Shown here piece by piece: positions 24,738 to 36,490 of a stretch of 47,880 bases of DNA. Source of the stretch: Desulfobacterales bacterium. Lineage in GTDB: Bacteria; Desulfobacterota; Desulfobacteria; Desulfobacterales; DTYH01. The notes beneath the pieces were generated by a model, which was given only the letters and a program-made list of their open reading frames with translations, was not told the origin of the DNA and did not search any database. Location of the stretch: positions 1 through 47,880 of the forward strand of contig DTYH01000241.1 in assembly GCA_012961955.1 (NCBI GenBank). Reading direction: 5' to 3'. A program made the position numbers and the translations under genes. Position 1 is the first letter of the stretch. Every line of letters starts with the position of its first letter.

Positions 24738-25402
24738 AGTCTTAAGTCCTCCCTGACTACCCTTCTGGGTCCACCGGCCCGTTCAGTGGACCAATCTTTA
24801 ATGGGAATAATCTTCTCATAGTCGTCCAGTCTACCCAGTTCATTAAGCCGGTCGATGATAAGCTGCCAGGCACAATCGAGCTCTTTATCTATTTCACACT
24901 TCCCTTTTGTGGATCCGCCGCAAGGGCCATTGAGGATTCTTTTAGCACACCGGGAAATGGGACAGATTCCAGCTGTCTCTCCTAGGATACATTTCCCACA
25001 CCCCTGACACCGTTCGCTCCAGACACCCCTTTCCTCAGTCACCCCCATGAAGCAAGTATCTACTCCTGGCAAGACACGGGTCCTGAAATATTTCTCAGCC
25101 ATAAATTGTACTCCGGCGCCACAGGCCAAGGAGATTACTACATCATATCGGTCGATGATCTTCCTCAACTCTTCCAGATATTCGTGGTCGCACTGACGCT
25201 CCAGGGTGACCTCGTCAATCTTCATATTCTTTCCCTGATTCATGAAATACATGCGAAGCGCCGAGGCAAGTATCCCCACCTCTTTTTTGCCACCCGCCTC
25301 ACAGACTGTAACGCATTCATTACAACCTGCTATAAGGATCTTTTCATAATCCCTTACCCCTTCAATGATCTCCTCGATCGGCTTTTGTTTCGCCACAATC
25401 AT
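24734..25402 (-). CDS. metV: MetV (MTHFR C-terminal-domain, Cys-rich Fe-S/Zn subunit)
   Basis: 222-aa ORF. Cys clusters (GCNECVTVCEAGG; CQGCGKCILGETAGICPISRCAKRILNGPCGG) as in the MetF-associated small subunit of acetogens. Confidence 0.75.
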   Translation of the reverse strand: MIVAKQKPIEEIIEGVRDYEKILIAGCNECVTVCEAGGKKEVGILASALRMYFMNQGKNMKIDEVTLERQCDHEYLEELRKIIDRYDVVISLACGAGVQFMAEKYFRTRVLPGVDTCFMGVTEERGVWSERCQGCGKCILGETAGICPISRCAKRILNGPCGGSTKGKCEIDKELDCAWQLIIDRLNELGRLDDYEKIIPIKDWSTERAGGPRRVVREDLRL

Positions 25403-25469
25403 ATTGCTACGACCTCGCTTTCTAGGGTTAGTTGATCAGTCGAGTAGCCGCATCTACTCCACAAAAAAA

Positions 25470-25907
25470 TCATATCATGCACCCATTCTTTTCCTTACTT
25501 ATTTTGATCGGGTTAGGTCCCATCTTTCTTATCTTTTCCGTCATTTCAACAGCGATCTCGGCAAACCGGGGTCCTTCACCAGAAGAGAGGTTATACATCT
25601 GCACCCGCTCACCTCCAACACCTATGCTTTCCAATATATGCTGAGCCTGTTCCACCCGCTTCCGGGCCCTCAGGTTGCCGCTATTGAACCGACAGTCACC
25701 TTCCAGGCAACCGACTACATAGACTCCGTCTGCCCCCTTTTCAAAAGCCCGTAAGAGATGAAGGACATCGACTTTGCCGGTACAAGGAACACCGATAATC
25801 TTTATATTTTCTGGGTATTGGATACGCATGGAACCTGCCAGGTCCGCGGCTGAGTATCCTCAGAAGTTACAGCAAAACGTGATAATGATCGGCTCGAATC
25901 CTTCCAT
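25470..25907 (-). CDS. mvhD: MvhD-like [2Fe-2S] protein with an in-frame TGA (predicted Sec) at codon 16
   Basis: Track ORF 25470..25829 extends in frame to ATG 25907, which overlaps the hdrA stop as TAATG. Reading: MEGFEPIIITFCCNF-TGA(25860-25862)-GYSAADLAGSMRIQYP.... The TGA replaces the second Cys of the CNWC motif that is present in the paralog at 29.7 kb. Confidence 0.75.
25820..25859 (-). promoter_or_regulatory. Candidate SECIS stem-loop for mvhD copy 1
   Basis: The RNA immediately 3' of the UGA is GGAUAC-N28-GUAUCC, with an inner GGACC-UGGCA-GG(U)UCC hairpin. Confidence 0.45.
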
Positions 25908-28900
25908 TATAAGACTCCTTCCAGCAAGGCTTCGACTTTGCTTAAAACCTGTTCATCTTCGTACCAGTTTAGTTGAATCGCCTTTGCAGGGCATTCCGCG
26001 GCACAGATTCCGCAGCCGTGACACAGGGCCTCATCAATTTCGCTGGCACCCTTCTCATTGACTCGAGGTACATCATAAGGGCAAGCCCGAACACATATAA
26101 GGCATGCTGCACACCTGTCCTGGTCTACGTTTGCGGTTACGGCAGAAAGGACGATCTCTGGCTGGGAAAGGAATGTGGTAGCCCTGGAAGCTGCCGCAAG
26201 GGCCTGAGAGATGGTCTCGGATATGAGCTTTGGGCTGTGCGCTGTGCCGCACAGGAATATCCCTTCATTCGCCAGATCGACTGGTCTCAATTTGACATGG
26301 GCCTCAATGAAATATCCCTCTTCGTTTCTGGGTAGCTTGAGGATAGAAGCCAGTTCTTCTGTATCCTCAGGGACCATGCCCGAGCTCAAGGCCAGCAGAT
26401 CGGCCGGAACCTGAAGATCCCGTTGAAGCAGGTGATCCTTGAAGGTTACGATCACGCCTTCTCTTGCAGATTCAACAACCGGTGGGTTGTCGACATGGTA
26501 CCGGAAAAACGCGACGCCTTTGCGTCTGGCCTCGGTGAAATAGTCTTCCAGCAGCCCATACGTTCGTATATCACGATATAGGATATAAACCTCGGCATCC
26601 GGATTAAGCTCTTTTATATGCAAGGCATTCTTCACAGCGCTCTGACAGCAGACTCTGGAGCAGTTGGGGTTTTCCTCGTTCCTGGAACCAACGCATTGGA
26701 TCATGACCACCCGCTTGAGGTCAGAAGCCCCCTTTACCTCCAATCGTTTCCCCAGTTCAATTTGGGTCATCACGCGAGGATCCTGTCCGTATAAATACTC
26801 TTTTGGTTTGTACTCATTAGCACCAGTGGCCACAATAACCACCCCGTGCTGAATCTTCCGCTCGTACATTCGGGGACCGACCAGAATCTCCGTGGTGAAG
26901 TTCCCTTTGAATCCAGTGAATCCGACGATGAGAGATTCGGTCAGTACCTGAATCATTTTATGCTGGTTGACCTTTTCGATCAGCTCATATAGGTAGGCCT
27001 GTATATCCTCACCTTCGATAGTGGTTGTTAATTCCCTTGCCAGACCGCCAAGTTGGGCCTCTTTTTCCACAATCACCGCCTCAAAACCCTGGTCTGCAAG
27101 ACCTAAAGCGGCATTCATACCTGCAATACCGCCCCCGATCACCAGTCCTCGTCGGTTGATGGGAATCCTTTTTTCTTTGAGTGGTTTTAGTAGATTCGCC
27201 CTGGCCACCGCCATCCTTACGAGATCCTTCGCCTTGTTAGTAGCGGTCTCGGGATCGTTTCCATGAACCCATGAGTTATGGTTTCTGATATTGGCCATCT
27301 CGAACAGATACTTATTCAGACCACATGCCTGAAGAGTCTCCTGGAACATCTGTTCATGTGTCCTTGGGGAGCATGAGGCAACCACAACCCGGTTTAGATT
27401 CTTCTCTTTGATCACCTCTTTGATCTTGTCCTGGGTGTCCTGAGAGCAGGTGAAGAGATTCTGATCGGTAAAAACAACATTGGGCAGGGTGGCAGCGTAT
27501 TCGGCCACGGCAGGGACGTCAACGACACCACCAATATTGATCCCACAATTGCAGACGAAGACCCCGATCCTGGGCTCCTCTTCCGCCACATCGATCTCAA
27601 CCGGCATCTCAATGGACTTTGCGTCTCTTCCCCTTGCTTCGGCAAGTACTGTCGCTGCTGCACAAGCAGCAGCACTGGCCTCAGTAACCGAGGTGGGAAT
27701 ATCTTTTGGACCTTGAAACACTCCACTGACAAAAATGCCTGGTCGTGATGTACTGACTGGTGAAAACGGATGGGTGGCCGCAAATTTGTATTTGTTCACC
27801 TCCACACCAAGCCTTCTGGCCAGGTCAAGAAGTGAATCAGGGATTCGCAAGCCAACGGACAGCACGACCATGTTGAATGTTTCTCTCTTTAGCTCTCCTC
27901 CTTCATCAACGTACTCTATGGATAAATCTCCAGTCTCGCGTACCTCATCAATGGTGTGAATCCTGGACTTGACAAACCGGACTCCACTCTTATCCTTTGC
28001 TCGTTGGTAGTACTTCTCGTAGTCTTTTCCGAAGGTTCTCATGTCGATGTTGAATACGGTACAGTCAAGTTCTCCATGTGAATGCTCCTTGGCGATCATG
28101 GCCTCCTTTATGGCATACATGCAACAGACAGAAGAACAATAGCCATTCCCACAAAGATTGACATCCCTTGACCCCACACACTGAATCCAGGCGATTCTCC
28201 TGGGCCCTTCTCTGTCCAAGGGTCGCATAAGGTGTCCTCGATAAGGGCCAGATGCACTCAAGATTCTTTCAAACTCTTCGCTGGTGACCACGTTGGAAAA
28301 CCTACCATAACCTAATAGCTCCAAGCCTGATGGATCAAAACCCTGACTCCCTGGAGACAGTATCAACGCTCCAACAGAAAGGGTGGTTCTTCTTTCCGTA
28401 TCATCGTAATTGATGGCCTTTGCCAGGCACATGGCTTCACAAAGGCCGCAACCAATGCATGTATCTGGATCAATTGCAAAGGCAAGAGGTACAGCCTGGG
28501 CATATTCTATGTAAGCAGCTTTCCTTTCATCCAACCCTAGATTATATAGGTTGAGAGTCGTGACAGGACAGTGTTTGGCACATTCCCCACAACCCGTACA
28601 CTTAACAGGATCGATATACCGGGGATAGCTGATCAGTGTGACCTTAAAATTTCCAGGCTTGCCTTCAACGCTTTCTATTTCACTATTTGTGACGATATTT
28701 ATGTTCAGGTGCCGGCCGACCTCGACCAGTTTCGGAGAAATAATTCACATCGCGCAGTCATTGGTCGGAAAGGTCTTGTCCAAACGGGACATCATACCGC
28801 CTATACTTGACGACCTCTCCACTAGGTGAACATAGTACCCCGAATTGGCAAGATCCAATGCGGCCTGCATGCCTGAAATGCCTGCACCGATGACCATTAC

Positions 28901-28933
28901 TGATCCACTCTTGATATCTTTTATATCTCCCAT
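25907..28933 (-). CDS. hdrA: Large tandem-module HdrA-like flavoprotein (1008 codons) with an in-frame TGA (predicted Sec)
   Basis: Track ORFs 28745..28933 and 25907..28534 are in the same frame with TGA 28745-28747 as the only stop between them. Reading: VIGAGISGMQAALDLA...[21 protein letters not shown]. It has two GxGxxG sites, two CVGSR...CC modules and four CxxCxxCxxxC ferredoxin motifs. AAGGAG RBS before ATG 28933. Confidence 0.82.
28712..28729 (-). promoter_or_regulatory. Candidate SECIS hairpin for hdrA copy 1
   Basis: The RNA CUGGUC-GAGGUC-GGCCGG starts 15 nt after the UGA. It forms a 6-bp stem (including G-U pairs) with a GGUC-containing loop. The 20 nt CTGGTCGAGGTCGGCCGGCA are identical in hdrA copy 2, although flanking synonymous sites differ. 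Confidence 0.6.
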
Positions 28934-28960
28934 CTTGACTCCTTATTTGTAACCCTCAGT

Positions 28961-29713
28961 TCAGGATATTAATCCAAATACAGGCACGCTACCTTGGTAT
29001 CCTTTAAATGCAACCTGGTTAATCTTTTCCATCTCTGAAAGGAGATACGATATCCTGCGTAGTTCAAGCCCTGTACGTTTGCTGATATCCCTCACACAGG
29101 ATGAGCCTTCCTTCAATGCAAGGTAGATCTGGTTCTTCTGGTATTCCCTTTCTAAAACAGAGGTCAAGATACCCTCAAATCGGCTCGCATCCCACTTCCG
29201 ACCATATACGTCGCCTGCGGTAGTCAGTGAGACCTCCTTCCCCACGAGCCAGCGCAACGTTTCGCTGGCCACCGTCATCTCAGCTGCATCGAGCTCCAGT
29301 TTGAAGGCCCGGGCATCAAACCTACCCTGACGCTTTATCGATTCAGTAACATTGTTAACAATTTCAGCAAAACGTTGCCCTTCTGCTGAAGAACACCAGG
29401 CGATATGAAGTCTGTCTCTTCCTATAGAGGCAAGATCCAGAAGCCTTTGGGTAAGACGGATTTTCTTTTCTGCTTGAACATTACCTTCCAGGTAATGGCA
29501 ATCACCGATATGTCACCCTGAAACCAGGACCCCGTCCCAACCGTCCTTTAAGGCCTTTATGACAAACACAGGATCAACGCGTGCAGAGCACATGACCCTC
29601 ACTGACCTCAGGTTTGATGGGTATTGGAGACGAGATACCCCGGCAAGATCCGCTGCTGCGTACGCGCACCAGTTACACAAAAATGCCAATATCTTTGGTT
29701 CAAATTGTTCCAT
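28961..29713 (-). CDS. mvhD: MvhD-like protein with an in-frame TGA (predicted Sec) and a ~110-aa winged-helix-like C-terminal extension
   Basis: Track ORFs 29513..29743 and 28961..29278 are in the same frame. Reading: ...DGWDGVLVSG-TGA(29513-29515)-HIGDCHYLEGNVQAEKK...; the paralog has GCLEGDC there. Start ATG 29713 (MEQFEPKILAFLCNWCAY, AGGGAGG upstream) is preferred over 29743. C-terminus: SCVRDISKRTGLELRRISYLLSEMEKINQVAFKG. Confidence 0.72.
29479..29497 (-). promoter_or_regulatory. Candidate SECIS hairpin for mvhD copy 2
   Basis: The RNA CAUUACC-UGGAA-GGUAAUG forms a perfect 7-bp stem with a 5-nt loop and starts 15 nt after the UGA. Confidence 0.55.
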
Positions 29714-30231
29714 GTTGTCTACAACCTCCCTTTCACCAGCCATCTACACTCATTCCCAGAACTCCAGTTAATCAATCGCAACATTTAAGCGTTCTGAAAC
29801 AAGCCGGTTGCATCAGACTCAAGCTGAACTTACGATGCAGGATATATGATGCATTCGGCGGAAACACATTGCACGTAAACCCCGTGTGAAAAAAGAAGTA
29901 TGTGTCGATTTTGACCCCGTGATTCCGCACGGGGCTTTTCTAGCGGAGTAAATCCAGTTATCCGCGTAACCTTTCATAAGCAAAACCAACCGTAGGGTGG
30001 CATCTTACATCTCACCGAAATTGCGGTGTGGTGCAAACCCCTTACAAATATTATCAAACCATAAGGCTTGTGGCTGCTTACTCTATCCTCGGTTTTGCAC
30101 GTAGCCATGACTATAACCAGATTTGCGGGATGCTGTAATCTTGCATCGTGTATCGTATGTTCAGAATTCGGCTTGTCTTTTGACGGGGCACGGTTTGTTT
30201 CAAGAGGCTGAAGTCTTAAAACCAATCAATC

Positions 30232-33200
30232 TTATATCCCAGCAGATACGGCCGCCAAGATCTGGCGATCCCTGAAATGGAGCATATCGACAGCCCTTTG
30301 TGGACATGAGGCTGCACATAATCCGCATCCCTTGCAGGAAGCCTGAATGTTTTTTGCCCGATACCCCTTGCCCTCTATCTCCTCCATGAGAATACCTCCA
30401 AAACTGCACACTTGTGCACACAGGCCACATCCGATACATCTATCACTGTCTATCTGCGCGACAATAGGAGAAATCTTAATAGAAGGCTTTGAAAGGACAA
30501 CGGAAGCCCTGCTCGCGGCAGCCATCGCTTGAGTAATGCTTTCATCGATCGGTTTAGGATGGTGCGCCAAACCACACACGAATAAGCCGTCATTTGCAAA
30601 ATCTACAGGTCTGAGCTTTGCGTGGGCCTCTACAAAAAACCTATCATCGTCTAAGGGTAGCTTGAAATAACTGGCAAGCTCTTCATGCCCTGATGGTTCA
30701 ATGGCCGTCGCCAGATTCAGGAAATCCGATTTGATCAAAAGATCCCTCTGAAGGACTGGATCAAATACACGAATCTCGAGTCCATCACCTACTTCATTGA
30801 CAATAGGCTTCTTTTCAGGGGTGTATCTAATAAAGATTATTCCCTTCTCCCTTGCTTTCCGGTAAAGGGCTTCTTTCTCCCCATATGTCCTAATATCCCG
30901 ATATAATATAAAAATCTCCATATCGGGCTTTTGTTCTTTTAGATGAATGGCCTGCGTAATAGATGTCGTGCAACAGAGCCTTGAGCAGTAAGGTCTACGT
31001 TCGTCCCTTGATCCCACACACAGGATAAAAGCAACAGCTTTAGCATTCCTGATCTTGTCCGGATCTTGCTCAAGTTCATGCCATCGCGTCACCCTCGGAT
31101 TCTTGCCATAAAGGTACTCATCTGTGCTTGAAGCCCGTGCACCGGTAGCTATAATCCCCACTCCATGCTTGATAATCCTGGCCTCTCCTTTGTGAAGGAC
31201 TTCTGTTTCAAAGTTGCCGATAAAACCCGAAGAACCTGTCACCTCTGCGTTCAACAGGACTTCCATTCGAGGATGGCTCTCCACCCTGTTCACCAAGTCA
31301 GATAGATACTTGTTAACATCCTTCCCACCCCATGTCTCTTTGATGTCTCTTGCATTTCCTCCCAATACGGACGATTTTTCGACAATAGTTGTGGGAAAAC
31401 CCTGGTCAGCAAGGCTCAAGGCCGCATTCATACCAGCAACACCCCCTCCAATAACAAGCGCAGATCTCTCAATCTCCACCACTACATCTGGAATAGGCTC
31501 TAACAAAGATGCCTTTGCAATAGCCATCCTCACAAGGTCTTTGGCCTTTTCTGTGGCTGTCTCTTTACTATCGGAATGGACCCACGTGCATTGATTCCGG
31601 ATATTGGCCATTTCGAATAGATGCTGGTTCAATCCAGCCTTCCGTATGGTTTCCTGAAATAGAGCTTCATGTGTCTTTGGTGAACACGCCGCAACCACAA
31701 GGCGGTTCAGAGCGTGTTCTCTGATCACCTCAACCATCTTCTCCTGTGTGTCCTGGCTGCAGGTAAAAAGATTCTCTTCAACGTAGACCACATTGGGCAG
31801 GGTTTTTGCGTATTCCGCTATGGCAGGAACATCTGCAAACCCGCCAATATTTACTCCACAGTTGCACACAAATACGCCTATACGTGGCCCTTCATCGGTC
31901 ACATCATTTTCTTTAGGAAATACATGTTCCTTAATTAGTTGCCCTCGGGACGGAGCCAAGCTGGTAGCTGATGCGCACGCCGCTGCACTTGCCTCCATAA
32001 CACACTGAGGAATGTCCTTGCATCCCTGAAGCAGCCCGGCAACATAGATGCCTGGCCTGGAAGTCGCAACGGGCAAGAAATCCTCTGTATCCACAAAGTT
32101 GTACTGGTTAAGCCGAATACCCAGATTTTTGGCTAGGTCTACGGCAGGTTTCGCGGGTTCCATACCGACTGACAGGACGACCATATCAAACTCTTCTTCA
32201 ACCACCTTCCCGGATTCCTCCAAATAGTACTCGATTTTGAGTGTACCGGTCTCATCTGCTTGCGTAATAGTGTGTACTCTCGAACGGATAAAGCGAACCC
32301 CTTCAGATTTGGCCCTTTCAAGATATCTTTCAAACCCCTTTCCGTATGTTCGTATATCCATATAGAAGATAGCGCCCACGAAATCGTCCCCGATATGTTC
32401 CTTTGCAACCATGGCCTCCTTGATCGCATACATGCAACAGACCGATGAGCAGTACTCGTTGTCGCACCGGTTGACGTCGCGGGAACCAACACATTGAAGC
32501 CATGCGATCCTTCTCGCCTTTCTCTGGTCAGAAAGACGGACCACATCTCCGGCATAAGGGCCCCCGGCTGAAAGGATCCGTTCAAACTCTATGCTGCTCA
32601 CCACATTGGGAAGTGTGGAATATTGGTAATTATCGAACCGGGAAGGATCAAACGGTCGAAAACCGCCTGTCAAGATGATAGACCCGACCTCGATCTTTAC
32701 GATCTCTTCCTTCTCATCGAAATTGATTGCCCCGGCAGGGCAGAACTTTTCACAGGCCTTACACCTGCCGCCTTTCTTGAAGTATATGCATCTGCCTGGG
32801 TCAAGAACATATTTGAAAGGCACAGCCTGAGCGTATGGTAAATAGGCAGCCTTCCTAGTTGCGAGACCCTGGTTGAATTCGTCAACAGCCTTCGCAGGAC
32901 ACTTTTCAGCACATATCCCACAGGCAATACATTTTTCCATATCCACATAGCGAGGGGATCTCCTCAGGGTGACATCAAAACGACCCTCCTCTCCATCAAT
33001 GCTGCTTACTTCTGAAAGAGTAAGGAGTTCAATATTTATATGCCGGCCGACCTCGACCAGCTTTGGCGAAAGAATTCACATAGCACAGTCATTGGTCGGA
33101 AAGGTCTTATCTAGCTGGGCCATGACTCCGCCAACCGCGGGAGATTTTTCCACAAGATAAACATAGTAGCCCGACTCAGCCAGATCTAATGCCGATTGGA

Positions 33201-33267
33201 GCCCGGTGATACCACCTCCCACAACCATGACTGACCCTATCAGGTCATTAGATTCTCTCTTGGTCAT
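30232..33267 (-). CDS. hdrA: Large tandem-module HdrA-like flavoprotein, paralog 2 (1011 codons), with an in-frame TGA (predicted Sec)
   Basis: Track ORFs 33076..33267 and 30232..32946 are in the same frame with TGA 33076-33078 as the only stop between them. Reading: [21 protein letters not shown], the same position as in paralog 1. Same domain order as paralog 1. Confidence 0.82.
33043..33060 (-). promoter_or_regulatory. Candidate SECIS hairpin for hdrA copy 2
   Basis: Identical CUGGUCGAGGUCGGCCGG element at the same 15-nt offset from the UGA as in copy 1. Confidence 0.6.
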
Positions 33268-33282
33268 TCTCCATATTCCTCT

Positions 33283-34158
33283 CTACAGGTTTGCTGCGTT
33301 AAGAACCTGTGGGAGCTTATCCTCCCACCCTACGGTTGAGATCATAACTCCTGCCATTCCCATATCTTTCAACTGGTTAATGAGTTCCCCTGCTATTTGA
33401 ATACAATGCTTTAACCTGTCCGGTGCTTTCTGAATCCCCCTTATCATCTCGGAGGGGATGGAGATGTTCTTGATGTTTCGATCGATGTAGCGTGCCATTC
33501 CAACAGACTTTAGAAGGAGAACAGTCGGGATCACAGCAACTTGGCTTGTATCTATTCGTTTAATGAACTGCTGGAATTGGTGAAGGTCAAAGACTGGGGT
33601 AGTAACGACAAATTCCACCCCAGCCTCTATCATCTTTTGAAGGTTCTCTATCTCCGTGTCTAGGCCACTGCCGACCGCGCCCGCGTTAATAGTCGAACCG
33701 ATAAAGAACTCTGGTGCACTTGAAAGCTCTATCCCTGCCATATCCCTGCCCCTTTGAAGCTTTTGAATCGTCTCCACTAGTTGTATCAGGTCTAAATCGT
33801 ATACAGCCTTTGCCTGGGGATGATCACCATATCGGATATCTTCGCCCGAGACGGCCATGATATTAGGTATTCCTAAAGCAGCCGCAGCAAGGACGTCTCC
33901 CTGTAGGGCCAACCTGTTTCGATCCCGACAACATACCTGAAAAACCGTCTCAAAACCGTTCATTTGAAGAAAGACACATCCGCCGAGAGAACTTGCCTTC
34001 ATTACGGAGTTGGCCATTTCAGGTATCACAAGCGCATCTAAGCGACCCTTTACCTGGTTGGCATTCTTCAAAAGACGAGAGAAGTCAGCACCTTTAGGCG
34101 TTTCAAATTCACCCAGCACGATATGTTCACCAGATTCTATCTTTTCCTTTAGCGGCAT
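33283..34158 (-). CDS. Divergent MetF-like (MTHFR family) protein, no adjacent MetV
   Basis: 291-aa ORF, collinear with MTHFR motifs (QVCCRDRNRLALQGDVLAAAALGI, AVSGED, FFIGSTIN, TPVFD). 15 nt upstream of hdrA paralog 2. Confidence 0.7.
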   Translation of the reverse strand: MPLKEKIESGEHIVLGEFETPKGADFSRLLKNANQVKGRLDALVIPEMANSVMKASSLGGCVFLQMNGFETVFQVCCRDRNRLALQGDVLAAAALGIPNIMAVSGEDIRYGDHPQAKAVYDLDLIQLVETIQKLQRGRDMAGIELSSAPEFFIGSTINAGAVGSGLDTEIENLQKMIEAGVEFVVTTPVFDLHQFQQFIKRIDTSQVAVIPTVLLLKSVGMARYIDRNIKNISIPSEMIRGIQKAPDRLKHCIQIAGELINQLKDMGMAGVMISTVGWEDKLPQVLNAANL

Positions 34159-34159
34159 A

Positions 34160-34549
34160 TTACAAACCTCCGAGTTTGTGGGCTAATTTATTGATAGCGT
34201 TGGAGATAGCCATTTCAAGGTCCTCAATTCCAAAGGACTTTACGTGATAGTAGAATATCCTCTGCTGGCGAATCCTGCTTTCGAGTTCTGGCGTATTGAC
34301 TTCAGCACAGATAATGATCGGGAGGTCCCTCACCATACCTTTGATAACAGAAATAAATCCGCAATCCTTCTCCAAAAGTGCAGCATCCAAGACCAGGACG
34401 TCTATACTCTGGCTCTGGAGGGTCAAGAGAGTCTCTTTTAAGGTTCCCGCAAGCATAACCCTGTAGCCCCTTTTGGTCAAAAATGAATGGAGTTCAGACG
34501 AAATCGCCTCCACTGGTTCAGCAAAAAGGACTGTCCTCTCTTTTTTCAT
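34160..34549 (-). CDS. Receiver-like (atypical REC) single-domain protein
   Basis: 129-aa ORF with a CheY-like beta-alpha pattern. It keeps VLVLDAAL and a late Lys (HVKSF) but lacks the N-terminal acidic pair (VLFAEPVE). Its stop is 1 nt from the metF-like start. Confidence 0.6.
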   Translation of the reverse strand: MKKERTVLFAEPVEAISSELHSFLTKRGYRVMLAGTLKETLLTLQSQSIDVLVLDAALLEKDCGFISVIKGMVRDLPIIICAEVNTPELESRIRQQRIFYYHVKSFGIEDLEMAISNAINKLAHKLGGL

Positions 34550-34569
34550 AAAGCAAGCCCTTTGATCGT

Positions 34570-34699
34570 AACTGTTCAGGGGGTAAAGCTTTTCTTAAAG
34601 CGACTTGGCGGAAGCCTTTGTTTTTCCATGAGTCGAGAGTAGGGGAAACCAGAACCACCACGGTTCACCCCGCTAGAAAAACCTCACCTCGTGAACAGT
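34570..34699. repeat. Dispersed repeat family C, copy C2 (inside the predicted 5' UTR of the cluster)
   Basis: Left end aactgttcagggggtaaagcttttc, right end gaaaaacctcacctcgtgaacag (inverted). Internal gcgacttggcgga and cctttgtttttcca are shared with C3 and C1. Confidence 0.75.
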
Positions 34700-34751
34700 G
34701 ACCTATGATCTTGTGATATCAGATATGGACTCGAATCTGTTCTCTTTTAGA

Positions 34752-34766
34752 GCAATGTTGGTGCCT
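34752..34766 (-). promoter_or_regulatory. Sigma54 (-24/-12) promoter
   Basis: The minus strand reads AGGCAC-CAACA-TTGCT against consensus TGGCAC-N5-TTGCW, with exact GG-N10-GC spacing. It lies ~200 nt upstream of ATG 34549 and downstream of an NtrC-type activator gene. Confidence 0.6.
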
Positions 34767-34843
34767 AATCTAAAAAAATAGTTAGACGAGATATTTCAAA
34801 TGGTTATGTTGTGTGGTTAATCAAGGGAGAATTTAGGACATGA

Positions 34844-34944
34844 GTAATTTTGTAACACATATGACGATTAAGTCTGTATAACATTGTGATTATACAGGAC
34901 TTTTTTCAGTTGCGAGGATAGCTCGCTTGATGTTACAAAATTAC
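34844..34944. promoter_or_regulatory. Candidate enhancer (UAS) palindromes upstream of the sigma54 promoter
   Basis: Perfect 14-nt inverted repeat GTAATTTTGTAACA (34844-34857) / TGTTACAAAATTAC (34931-34944), enclosing CTGTATAA-N8-TTATACAG (34874-34897). Located 80-190 nt upstream of the -24 element. Confidence 0.35.
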
Positions 34945-34976
34945 ACGTCCATCATCCAGAAAGAAGCGGGAGACAT

Positions 34977-35002
34977 AACTGTTCACGGGGGTGAAGCTTT
35001 TC
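34977..35002. repeat. Solo family-C terminal repeat
   Basis: aactgttcacgggggtgaagcttttc with no matching right end nearby. Confidence 0.6.
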
Positions 35003-35040: not shown

Positions 35041-36402
35041 TCAAGAAAGGTTATACCTCTTTATTTTCAGCCCTAATGTCTTGCGATTTATACCGAGTAT
35101 CTTTGCAGCCAGAGTCTTCTTCCCTCTGGTTCTCTGCAACACAAATCGGATATACTTCTTCTCCAGTTCTTCCAGGCTGAGAAGCTCTTCGGAAAATATC
35201 TGAAACTCTCCCTGCCTCTGCGAGATATACGCAGGCAGATTGCTAGCGCGTATTACGTCCGTATCTTCCAGGACAAGAATGCGCTCTATGATATGTTTGA
35301 GTTCTCTCACATTTCCCGGCCAAGCGTACTCTTTCAGTATCTCAATAGCCTCGGGTGAGACCTCAGGGATGGGCTTTTTTATCTTCTGACTGAATTGGTT
35401 AAGAAAGTGGTCTATAAGGAGGGGGATATCCTCCTTTCTTTCCCTTAGGGGAGGAAGATGAATGGGTACCACACTGAGACGATAATAGAGGTCTTCTCTG
35501 AAGGTTCCAGCTTTAATCGAATCATGGAGATCCTTATTGGAAGCAGATATGATCCTTATATCCAGTTTGATCTTCTTCTGATCTCCTACCTTCATGAATT
35601 CCCTTTCCTGGATCACCCGTAGAAGTTTTGCCTGAGTTGTCAGACTTAAGTTGGAAATTTCATCGAAGAAAAAGGTTCCATGATTAGCCAGCTCAAAAAG
35701 ACCGTGTTTTGTGTGTATCGCTCCAGTAAATGAACCCTTAACATGACCAAAAAGTTCACTCTCTAGGAGTGTCTCAACAAGGGACGAACAGTCCACCGCC
35801 ACAAATTCCTTATGACTCCGATTACTGTTTACATGAATTGCTCTGGCTACCAATTCCTTCCCTGTTCCGCTCTCTCCTGTAATAAGTACAGTGCTGTCCG
35901 TAGGTGCTACCCTGAGTATCTTATCGAATATCTCCTTCATGGGAGGGCTCTGGCCGACGATCAGGTGTTTGCTCGATTCAATCTTGAGCCCAAATTTATT
36001 TACTATAGACTTTTTGGATACCGTATCAGTCGGTTTAATCTTATTTATAGCGACCTCCAGATCATCGATCCGAAATGGTTTGACCAGATAATCCAAAGCT
36101 CCGAGTTTAATACATTGAACGGCCGTATCTATGGTTGGGTAACCGGTAATCATGATGACCCTTGTATCAGGATGTTTAACCCGTATCTCCTTCAACACCT
36201 GTATACCGTCCATATCCTCCATGCGAATATCAAGGAGGACAAGATCAAATCTGCTGTGCGCTAAAAGACTAAGGGCCTCACTACCATTTGCAGCCAGGAC
36301 AGAACTGATCCCTCTATTTCTGAGAATTCTATCGATTCCGTTACGGACAACAGGCTCGTCGTCTACAACCAGCACTCGATTTATATTGTTAAAAGAGTTC
36401 AT
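35041..36402 (-). CDS. Sigma54-dependent response regulator (NtrC family: REC-AAA+-Fis HTH)
   Basis: Track ORF 35041..36453; ATG 36402 (MNSFNNINRVLVVDDEP) is the likelier start. Walker A GESGTGKE, GAFTGA-type loop (GSFTGA), C-terminal HTH (KTLAAKILGINRKTLGLKIKRY). Confidence 0.9.
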   Translation of the reverse strand: MNSFNNINRVLVVDDEPVVRNGIDRILRNRGISSVLAANGSEALSLLAHSRFDLVLLDIRMEDMDGIQVLKEIRVKHPDTRVIMITGYPTIDTAVQCIKLGALDYLVKPFRIDDLEVAINKIKPTDTVSKKSIVNKFGLKIESSKHLIVGQSPPMKEIFDKILRVAPTDSTVLITGESGTGKELVARAIHVNSNRSHKEFVAVDCSSLVETLLESELFGHVKGSFTGAIHTKHGLFELANHGTFFFDEISNLSLTTQAKLLRVIQEREFMKVGDQKKIKLDIRIISASNKDLHDSIKAGTFREDLYYRLSVVPIHLPPLRERKEDIPLLIDHFLNQFSQKIKKPIPEVSPEAIEILKEYAWPGNVRELKHIIERILVLEDTDVIRASNLPAYISQRQGEFQIFSEELLSLEELEKKYIRFVLQRTRGKKTLAAKILGINRKTLGLKIKRYNLS

Positions 36403-36490
36403 AACAAAAGAACCCCTACCAAAGAATAGTAACATTTTTGCGTTTTTAAACAACGTAACAGCCGCATTAAACTCAAGCTGAATGCGCGAT

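Follow-up and report, generated by a model that had tools for sequence, protein, structure and literature searches.

Two tandem hdrA-like genes of a Desulfobacterales bacterium share a sequence-invariant hairpin that is very likely a bacterial selenocysteine insertion element

Selenocysteine (Sec)-containing HdrA and FrhD/MvhD, in multiple copies, were reported from Deltaproteobacteria (e.g. Syntrophobacter) in 2006, together with a prediction of the bacterial selenocysteine insertion sequence (bSECIS) (PMC1794560), and Sec-containing HdrA, HdrL and MvhD were described in Desulfobacterium autotrophicum HRM2 in 2009 (PMC2702500). Here we analyse a stretch of 47,880 nucleotides (nt) from a Desulfobacterales bacterium (contig DTYH01000241.1), in which two tandem hdrA-like genes each contain an in-frame UGA codon followed by the same 20-nt block. 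We consider it very likely that this block is the bSECIS of each hdrA paralog. The whole stretch is termed the window, and all positions refer to it.

The bSECIS model of Zhang and Gladyshev (bSECISearch) is summarised in Fig. 2 of PMC13188914. It describes a hairpin with a loop of 3–9 nt on a stem of 4–16 base pairs (bp), G as one of the first two loop bases and G or U directly after it, a distance of 16–37 nt between UGA and loop, and a minimum free energy of at most -7.5 kcal/mol (PMC13188914). The element of Escherichia coli fdhF has further features, namely a bulged U (U17) in the 5′ arm and an upper stem-loop of 17 nt at a distance of 11 nt from the UGA (PMC8659212).

The hdrA and mvhD genes of the window and the hairpins that follow their UGA codons lie on the minus strand. 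Translation of paralog 2 (33267..30232) gives 1011 codons including one in-frame UGA at codon 64 (33078..33076), which we read as Sec; paralog 1 (28933..25907) has 1008 residues with its UGA, likewise read as Sec, at codon 63 (28747..28745). The genes are 4.3 kilobases (kb) apart on the same strand (4.33 kb from UGA to UGA). As the first-pass annotation had claimed, the two UGAs occupy homologous codons, and all five synonymous differences that it listed near them (TGC/TGT, GCG/GCT, TCT/TCG, CCG/CCA and AAA/AAG) are real. The 20-nt block that it described 15 nt downstream of the UGA is present in both genes as an exact CTGGTCGAGGTCGGCCGGCA, at 33060..33041 in paralog 2 and at 28729..28710 in paralog 1. 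The interval given for paralog 2 starts at 33043, which cuts off the final two bases of the block, and the minus strand went unstated. CTGGTCGAGGTCGGCCGGCA occurs exactly twice in the window, both times on the minus strand and each time starting 15 nt past a UGA; shuffles of the window never yielded two matches to it at up to two mismatches.

The block folds as CUGGUCG-AGGU-CGGCCGG, a contiguous stem of 7–8 bp whose loop presents G-G-U. Paralog 1 (hairpin at 28712..28729, CUGGUCG / AGGU / CGGCCGG) has the majority form of 7 bp, preceded by AAA. In paralog 2 (hairpin at 33042..33061, G-CUGGUCG / loop AGGU / CGGCCGG-C) the stem has 8 bp because Lys +5, counted from Sec, is encoded by AAG; since the G of this codon (33061) pairs, the spacer between UGA and hairpin (33062..33075, AUU CUU UCG CCA AA) is 14 nt, where an AAA of the paralog-1 type gives 15 nt.

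Every part of the bSECIS model can be matched to these hairpins. The stem is in the coding region and begins 14–15 nt past the UGA in both paralogs, the loop has 4 nt on stems of 7 bp (paralog 1) and 8 bp (paralog 2), the loop sequence A-G-G-U has G in position 2 and then G, and the apical loop comes 22 nt after the UGA. Direct evaluation of the bare hairpin gives -9.1 kcal/mol for paralog 1 and -12.5 kcal/mol for paralog 2; RNAfold gives -10.2 kcal/mol for paralog 1 and -14.0 kcal/mol for paralog 2 (32-nt segment, z = -3.3).

Orthologs were collected from one genome per species by scanning for two peptide patterns that do not depend on the block, LDKTFPTN and AIN[FY]D[ED][KT]E. The scan returned 80 loci, mostly from Desulfobacterota. 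The best genome match, in an uncultured Desulfobacteraceae (L001), is 73% identical, and its two hdrA UGA codons are ~3.8 kb apart. Loci and window together hold 94 hdrA N-terminal sites, 67 with TGA and 27 with a TGY (Cys) codon; the 92 with full 120-nt context (66 TGA, 26 TGY) were analysed. The 26 TGY homologs, with a Cys codon at the UGA position, make this position a Sec/Cys pair. A simple implementation of the bSECIS rules accepts 62 of the 66 TGA sites vs 1 of the 26 TGY sites in these related genomes (p = 3e-17).

The first-pass annotation had suggested selection on an RNA structure in addition to the peptide, and this is supported by the bSECIS fit and by the comparison of Sec with Cys orthologs. 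Where the peptide LVEVGRH is encoded, the exact 20-mer is found in 51/52 TGA sites and in 0/6 TGY sites (Fisher p = 1.7e-7), the latter six differing from the block by 1–6 mismatches; Cys orthologs, in other words, do not keep it. Synonymous change is suppressed over the hairpin itself: the pairwise same-codon fraction of Sec sites reaches 1.0 throughout codons +6 to +10, with 0.96 at +11 and 0.86 at +5, and falls sharply at both edges, to 0.31 (+4) and 0.50 (+12). At the spacer codons +1 to +4 it is 0.24–0.61, with synonymous sites free to vary, and in Cys-type genes the codons of the block give 0.18–0.54. Synonymous sites in the flanks show the same saturation in Sec-type as in Cys-type genes, which provides a control for relatedness; despite that saturation the block is identical across dozens of genera.

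An independent metagenome sample, in which sites were picked only by FPTNDCxM plus TGA, has the exact 18-nt core in 104 of its 118 sites. Throughout the 1.245 megabases of fetched loci the core occurs 162 times, and a TGA stands 18 nt upstream of its start every time, a TGY never.

Sec and Cys sites also differ at two further positions. At codon +5 (33061-33063 and 28730-28732, minus strand) 88% of Sec sites (AAA) vs 46% of Cys sites have A as the last base before the stem; this A is kept through the nonsynonymous variants ACA, ATA, GTA and AGA, and paralog 2 has the minority codon AAG. Position +9 after Sec (33049-33051, minus strand) is Val in 56/66 Sec-type genes and Cys in 16/26 Cys-type genes. 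The GUC codon of this Val contributes both loop and stem bases, so that an RNA requirement may be biasing the amino acid, fixing Val rather than Cys, although clade structure confounds the comparison.

Two Cys-type genes, L051:3174 (Candidatus Adiutrix) and L066:3120, keep the block with one mismatch each, and in both the mismatch breaks a stem pair (C15 to G and C6 to G, respectively). These are probably fossil SECIS elements left after Sec-to-Cys conversion. Remnant (‘fossil’) bSECIS elements in Cys-containing descendants have already been reported (PMC1794560, Fig. 4); the near-intact blocks seen here are alike in kind and differ in belonging to other genomes, not to the window. A further locus with Cys-type genes, L080 (JBHLOI010000070.1), is labelled Promethearchaeota archaeon and carries two Cys-type hdrA modules, likewise in tandem, whose identity to the window protein is ~50%.

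Other Sec-type hdrA genes among the related loci carry different hairpins downstream of the UGA. Class B (L039, L043-L045, L048, L056, L059, L061, L063 and L070), UGAGUGC-GGUCG-GCACUUR, encodes the peptide LVECGRH and has an identical core in 10/10 Sec sites vs 0/9 Cys sites. Class C (L016:6781, L025:6819 and L031:4974), GGAUGUC-GGUC-GRCAUCC, encodes MLDVGRH and shows a U.G to U-A change. Both classes have stems of 7–8 bp, GGUC(G) loops and the GGU ~27 nt past the UGA, so the selected object appears to be a hairpin that displays GGU and not one particular string. It is mainly these alternative classes that argue for structure rather than primary sequence. Within the main class, 99.2% of cells are paired over 131 distinct sequences; seven cells are unpaired, five of them in the terminal pair. 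A double change, C-G to U-A, is seen at one pair (two sequences), and at four pairs a change on one side preserves pairing; two of these changes alter the protein (R to Q, G to D) and replace U.G by U-A.

The two paralogs of the window share 54% of amino acids and 58% of nucleotides when compared with each other, and they use the same codon at 40% of identical degenerate residues. Their longest identical runs are 23 nt, located upstream of the UGA, then the 20-nt block, then 17 nt. The possibility, raised at the outset, that the block might be no more conserved than other stretches is refuted across the orthologs and partly holds for the two window paralogs taken alone, given the longer upstream run. 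When same-codon labels were permuted within each amino-acid class of the paralog alignment, a run of at least 6 shared codons arose somewhere in the gene in 24% of these residue-stratified shuffles, which is not significant unless the site is specified beforehand; at the pre-specified SECIS position the probability of the shared-codon run is 8.5e-4. It is the ortholog comparison that makes the identity of the block more than chance.

The 23-nt run, AAGACCTTTCCGACCAATGACTG, encodes KTFPTNDC and is found just upstream of the UGA at 33086-33108 and 28755-28777 (minus strand). Its inclusion in an extended element was rejected on two grounds: among Sec orthologs its codons vary freely (same-codon fraction 0.43-0.75, like the Cys-type genes), and Cys/Cys copies, e.g. 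those of L072, share long upstream runs as well. It looks like the product of a very conserved peptide and biased codons (or of local conversion), not of a SECIS. By eye, an upstream CCGACC could pair with a downstream GGUCGG; the upstream codons are not conserved.

Several results weigh against taking the block for a bSECIS. The two paralogs by themselves are suggestive and give weak evidence for RNA constraint, and thermodynamic support from the window is also weak: against shuffles, z is an unconvincing -0.57 for the paralog-1 hairpin, and +0.25 and -1.57 for the 59-nt contexts. An Rfam search of 25000-35000 with E up to 10 returned neither SECIS nor any other relevant family. Because Sec-type and Cys-type genes fall partly into separate clades, their comparison lacks phylogenetic independence; the saturated flanks are its internal control. 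The main class shows almost no covariation, too little to establish structure alone, because coding for Leu-Val-Glu-Val-Gly-Arg leaves only G-C to G.U wobbles as structure-neutral synonymous options; in a hairpin of ~-9 kcal/mol such wobbles would bring the fold near the -7.5 threshold and would hence be selected against. Finally, a tRNA scan of the 47.9-kb window found no tRNA, hence no tRNA-Sec, and among its open reading frames scanned against Pfam there was no selA, selB, selC or selD; with no Sec machinery in the window, the case for Sec decoding in this organism comes from its relatives.

The same observations bear on what else could have produced an identical block. Gene conversion or a recent duplication between the tandem paralogs, with no selection on RNA, would agree with their lying 4.3 kb apart on one strand, with the still longer identical run just upstream of the UGA, and with the long upstream runs that are common between within-genome copies in other genomes. 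It would not, however, end precisely at the hairpin boundaries in every genome, nor keep the block identical over dozens of genera with saturated flanks when the paralogs themselves are only 58% identical in nucleotides; an invariance across genomes that is limited to TGA-bearing genes effectively refutes this origin, to which we give hardly any credence. An equally slim chance attaches to conservation of the peptide KLVEVGRH combined with codon-usage bias: the peptide is indeed highly conserved, CTG, GAG and GGC are common codons, and a run of at least six shared codons turns up somewhere in the gene with P = 0.24, but Cys-type genes with the same peptide use other codons (0/6 exact) and the same-codon rates of Leu, Val, Gly and Arg in the window are just 0.19–0.37; the contrast between Sec and Cys genes refutes this reading. 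If the UGA were instead a true stop, the gene being a pseudogene or split after a 63-residue N-terminal fragment and the conservation downstream being unrelated, then the behaviour of standard gene callers, which split the gene there, and the lack of visible Sec machinery in the window would follow. Yet in 66 genes from genomes and 118 from metagenomes frame and protein similarity run on past the UGA, this codon aligns with a Cys of the catalytic domain, and the GxGxxG FAD (flavin adenine dinucleotide)-binding motif upstream of it would be cut from the rest of its domain, all of which makes termination here extremely improbable.

A different kind of alternative accepts the RNA constraint and asks for more than plain recruitment of the elongation factor SelB, through a primary-sequence element that serves stem-sequence recognition or a selenium-responsive regulator shared by all hdrA copies. 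In its favour, the wobble variants GGT, GTT and TTG occur 0 or 1 times per site among the 131 distinct sequences, and the A before the stem (88% of Sec vs 46% of Cys sites) is retained through nonsynonymous changes. However, marginal stability (~-9 vs a threshold of -7.5 kcal/mol) is enough to explain the avoidance of wobbles, and other Sec-type hdrA lineages have quite different stem sequences; we regard such an element as a poor prospect. The exclusion of pair-preserving wobbles together with the preferred A 5′ of the stem means that the block could be more than a generic hairpin, and direct recognition of the stem sequence by the phylum's SelB, or joint regulation of every Sec-type hdrA gene by another factor acting through the motif, is an unlikely but arguable extension of the bSECIS assignment.

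If the block is a bSECIS, as we favour, it would act as follows. The 18 nt CUGGUCG-AGGU-CGGCCGG of the mRNA would form the hairpin, its stem beginning 14–15 nt past the UGA. By analogy with E. coli fdhF, SelB carrying GTP and Sec-tRNA(Sec) would bind the loop and would then stay at the ribosome when the UGA reaches the A site, allowing insertion of Sec in place of termination. Sec would substitute for the FAD-domain cysteine that corresponds to Cys197 of archaeal HdrA. Binding of SelB and actual incorporation of Sec in this organism we infer indirectly, from a constraint restricted to TGA-bearing genes. These 18 nt code for Leu-Val-Glu-Val-Gly-Arg as well, which leaves almost no room for compensatory changes of pairs. 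With coding and a marginal hairpin (~-9 to -10 kcal/mol) combined, even wobbles would be disfavoured, which would account for a block that is nucleotide-identical between the paralogs and in most Desulfobacterota Sec-type hdrA genes.

The protein encoded by paralog 2 has an N-terminal HdrA FAD module, a second module of flavin/NAD (nicotinamide adenine dinucleotide) type and C-terminal ferredoxin motifs. Its NCBIfam matches, HdrA2 (E = 5e-295) and HdrA (E = 4e-213), are both below the equivalog cut-offs; by these matches it counts as an HdrA-like fusion that includes a second flavin module and not as a strict HdrA equivalog. Homology to the HdrA structure 5ODC_A of the Protein Data Bank extends across the UGA (E = 4.6e-122 over residues 13-437), and in this alignment query residue 13 corresponds to residue 146, so that residue 64, the UGA, falls on Cys197 of the Methanothermococcus thermolithotrophicus protein. 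In another solved HdrA, 9sfi_A, the UGA aligns with an X, which we read as Sec.

Next to the paralogs, on the minus strand, are two mvhD genes in which an in-frame UGA likewise precedes a hairpin, with G as the first loop base. The first, an mvhD/FlpD-like gene at 28961-29743, matches Pfam FlpD with E = 2.5e-49 when read through its TGA (29513-29515), which stands between ...VLVSG and HIGDCHY and is followed from 15 nt downstream by the hairpin CAUUACCU-GGA-AGGUAAUG. It has a C-terminal extension of ~120 amino acids without a Pfam match, and is likely the third selenoprotein gene of the cluster. Between its start and the stop of hdrA-2 lie ~490 nt (29744-30231) without a convincing open reading frame. 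The second mvhD (25470-25907) has an ATG that abuts or overlaps the stop codon of hdrA-1. Its TGA (25860-25862) stands between MEGFEPIIITFCCNF and GYSAADLAG, at a Cys position unlike that of the other mvhD, and standard calling of open reading frames truncates its N-terminus; its hairpin is two-tiered, with a GGC loop, 20 nt past the UGA.

Gene order on the minus strand is metF, hdrA-2, mvhD, hdrA-1, mvhD, metV, metF. Two-component regulators of the sigma-54 type are found upstream of this cluster and an ATP sulfurylase gene elsewhere in the window, and gene content thus points to a sulfate reducer with a module of the MetFV/HdrA/MvhD type. At 34751-34766 (minus strand), ~200 nt upstream of the response-regulator/metF/hdrA operon and adjoining a sigma-54 activator gene (35041-36453), AGGCACCAACATTGCT agrees with the sigma-54 promoter consensus with one mismatch; in a scan of the whole window for sigma-54 promoters, matches were no commoner than chance.

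In annotation, translation through the UGA is called for in both hdrA genes and in the two mvhD genes beside them: all four should be entered as selenoproteins and not as split genes or pseudogenes. The locus offers a clean textbook case of overlapping protein and RNA constraint, with a codon-sharp RNA footprint that is gone in Cys-type relatives. It opens no new question, both Sec-HdrA and the bacterial SECIS being well established: the element is real and well conserved, but sulfate-reducing bacteria are already known to have elements of its kind.

The closest known relatives of the locus are the Sec-type HdrA, HdrL and MvhD genes of Deltaproteobacteria. Shared with them are the multiple Sec-type hdrA copies, each followed by a selenoprotein mvhD, in a sulfate reducer, and the placement of Sec at a conserved Cys of the FAD domain; the setting differs, with hydrogenase or formate dehydrogenase genes there and metF / hdrA / mvhD / hdrA / mvhD / metV / metF here.

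The fdhF element of E. coli has the sequence GCAGGUCUGC, which the local sequence GAGGUCGG resembles. Common to the two is an apical loop containing GGU, presented to SelB downstream of the UGA. The hdrA hairpin differs in having no bulged U equivalent to U17, by which it falls outside the fdhF type, in a stem that starts 14–15 nt past the UGA as against 11 nt in fdhF, in a GGU at nt 27–29 as against 22–24, and in lacking a long lower helix that includes the UGA. From the bSECIS consensus it differs in no defining feature; what sets it apart is its unusual sequence invariance across the phylum, which follows from its overlap with a conserved peptide. On these comparisons the hdrA hairpin would work like the fdhF element without being of that subtype, and is to be counted as a regular member of the broader bSECIS class.

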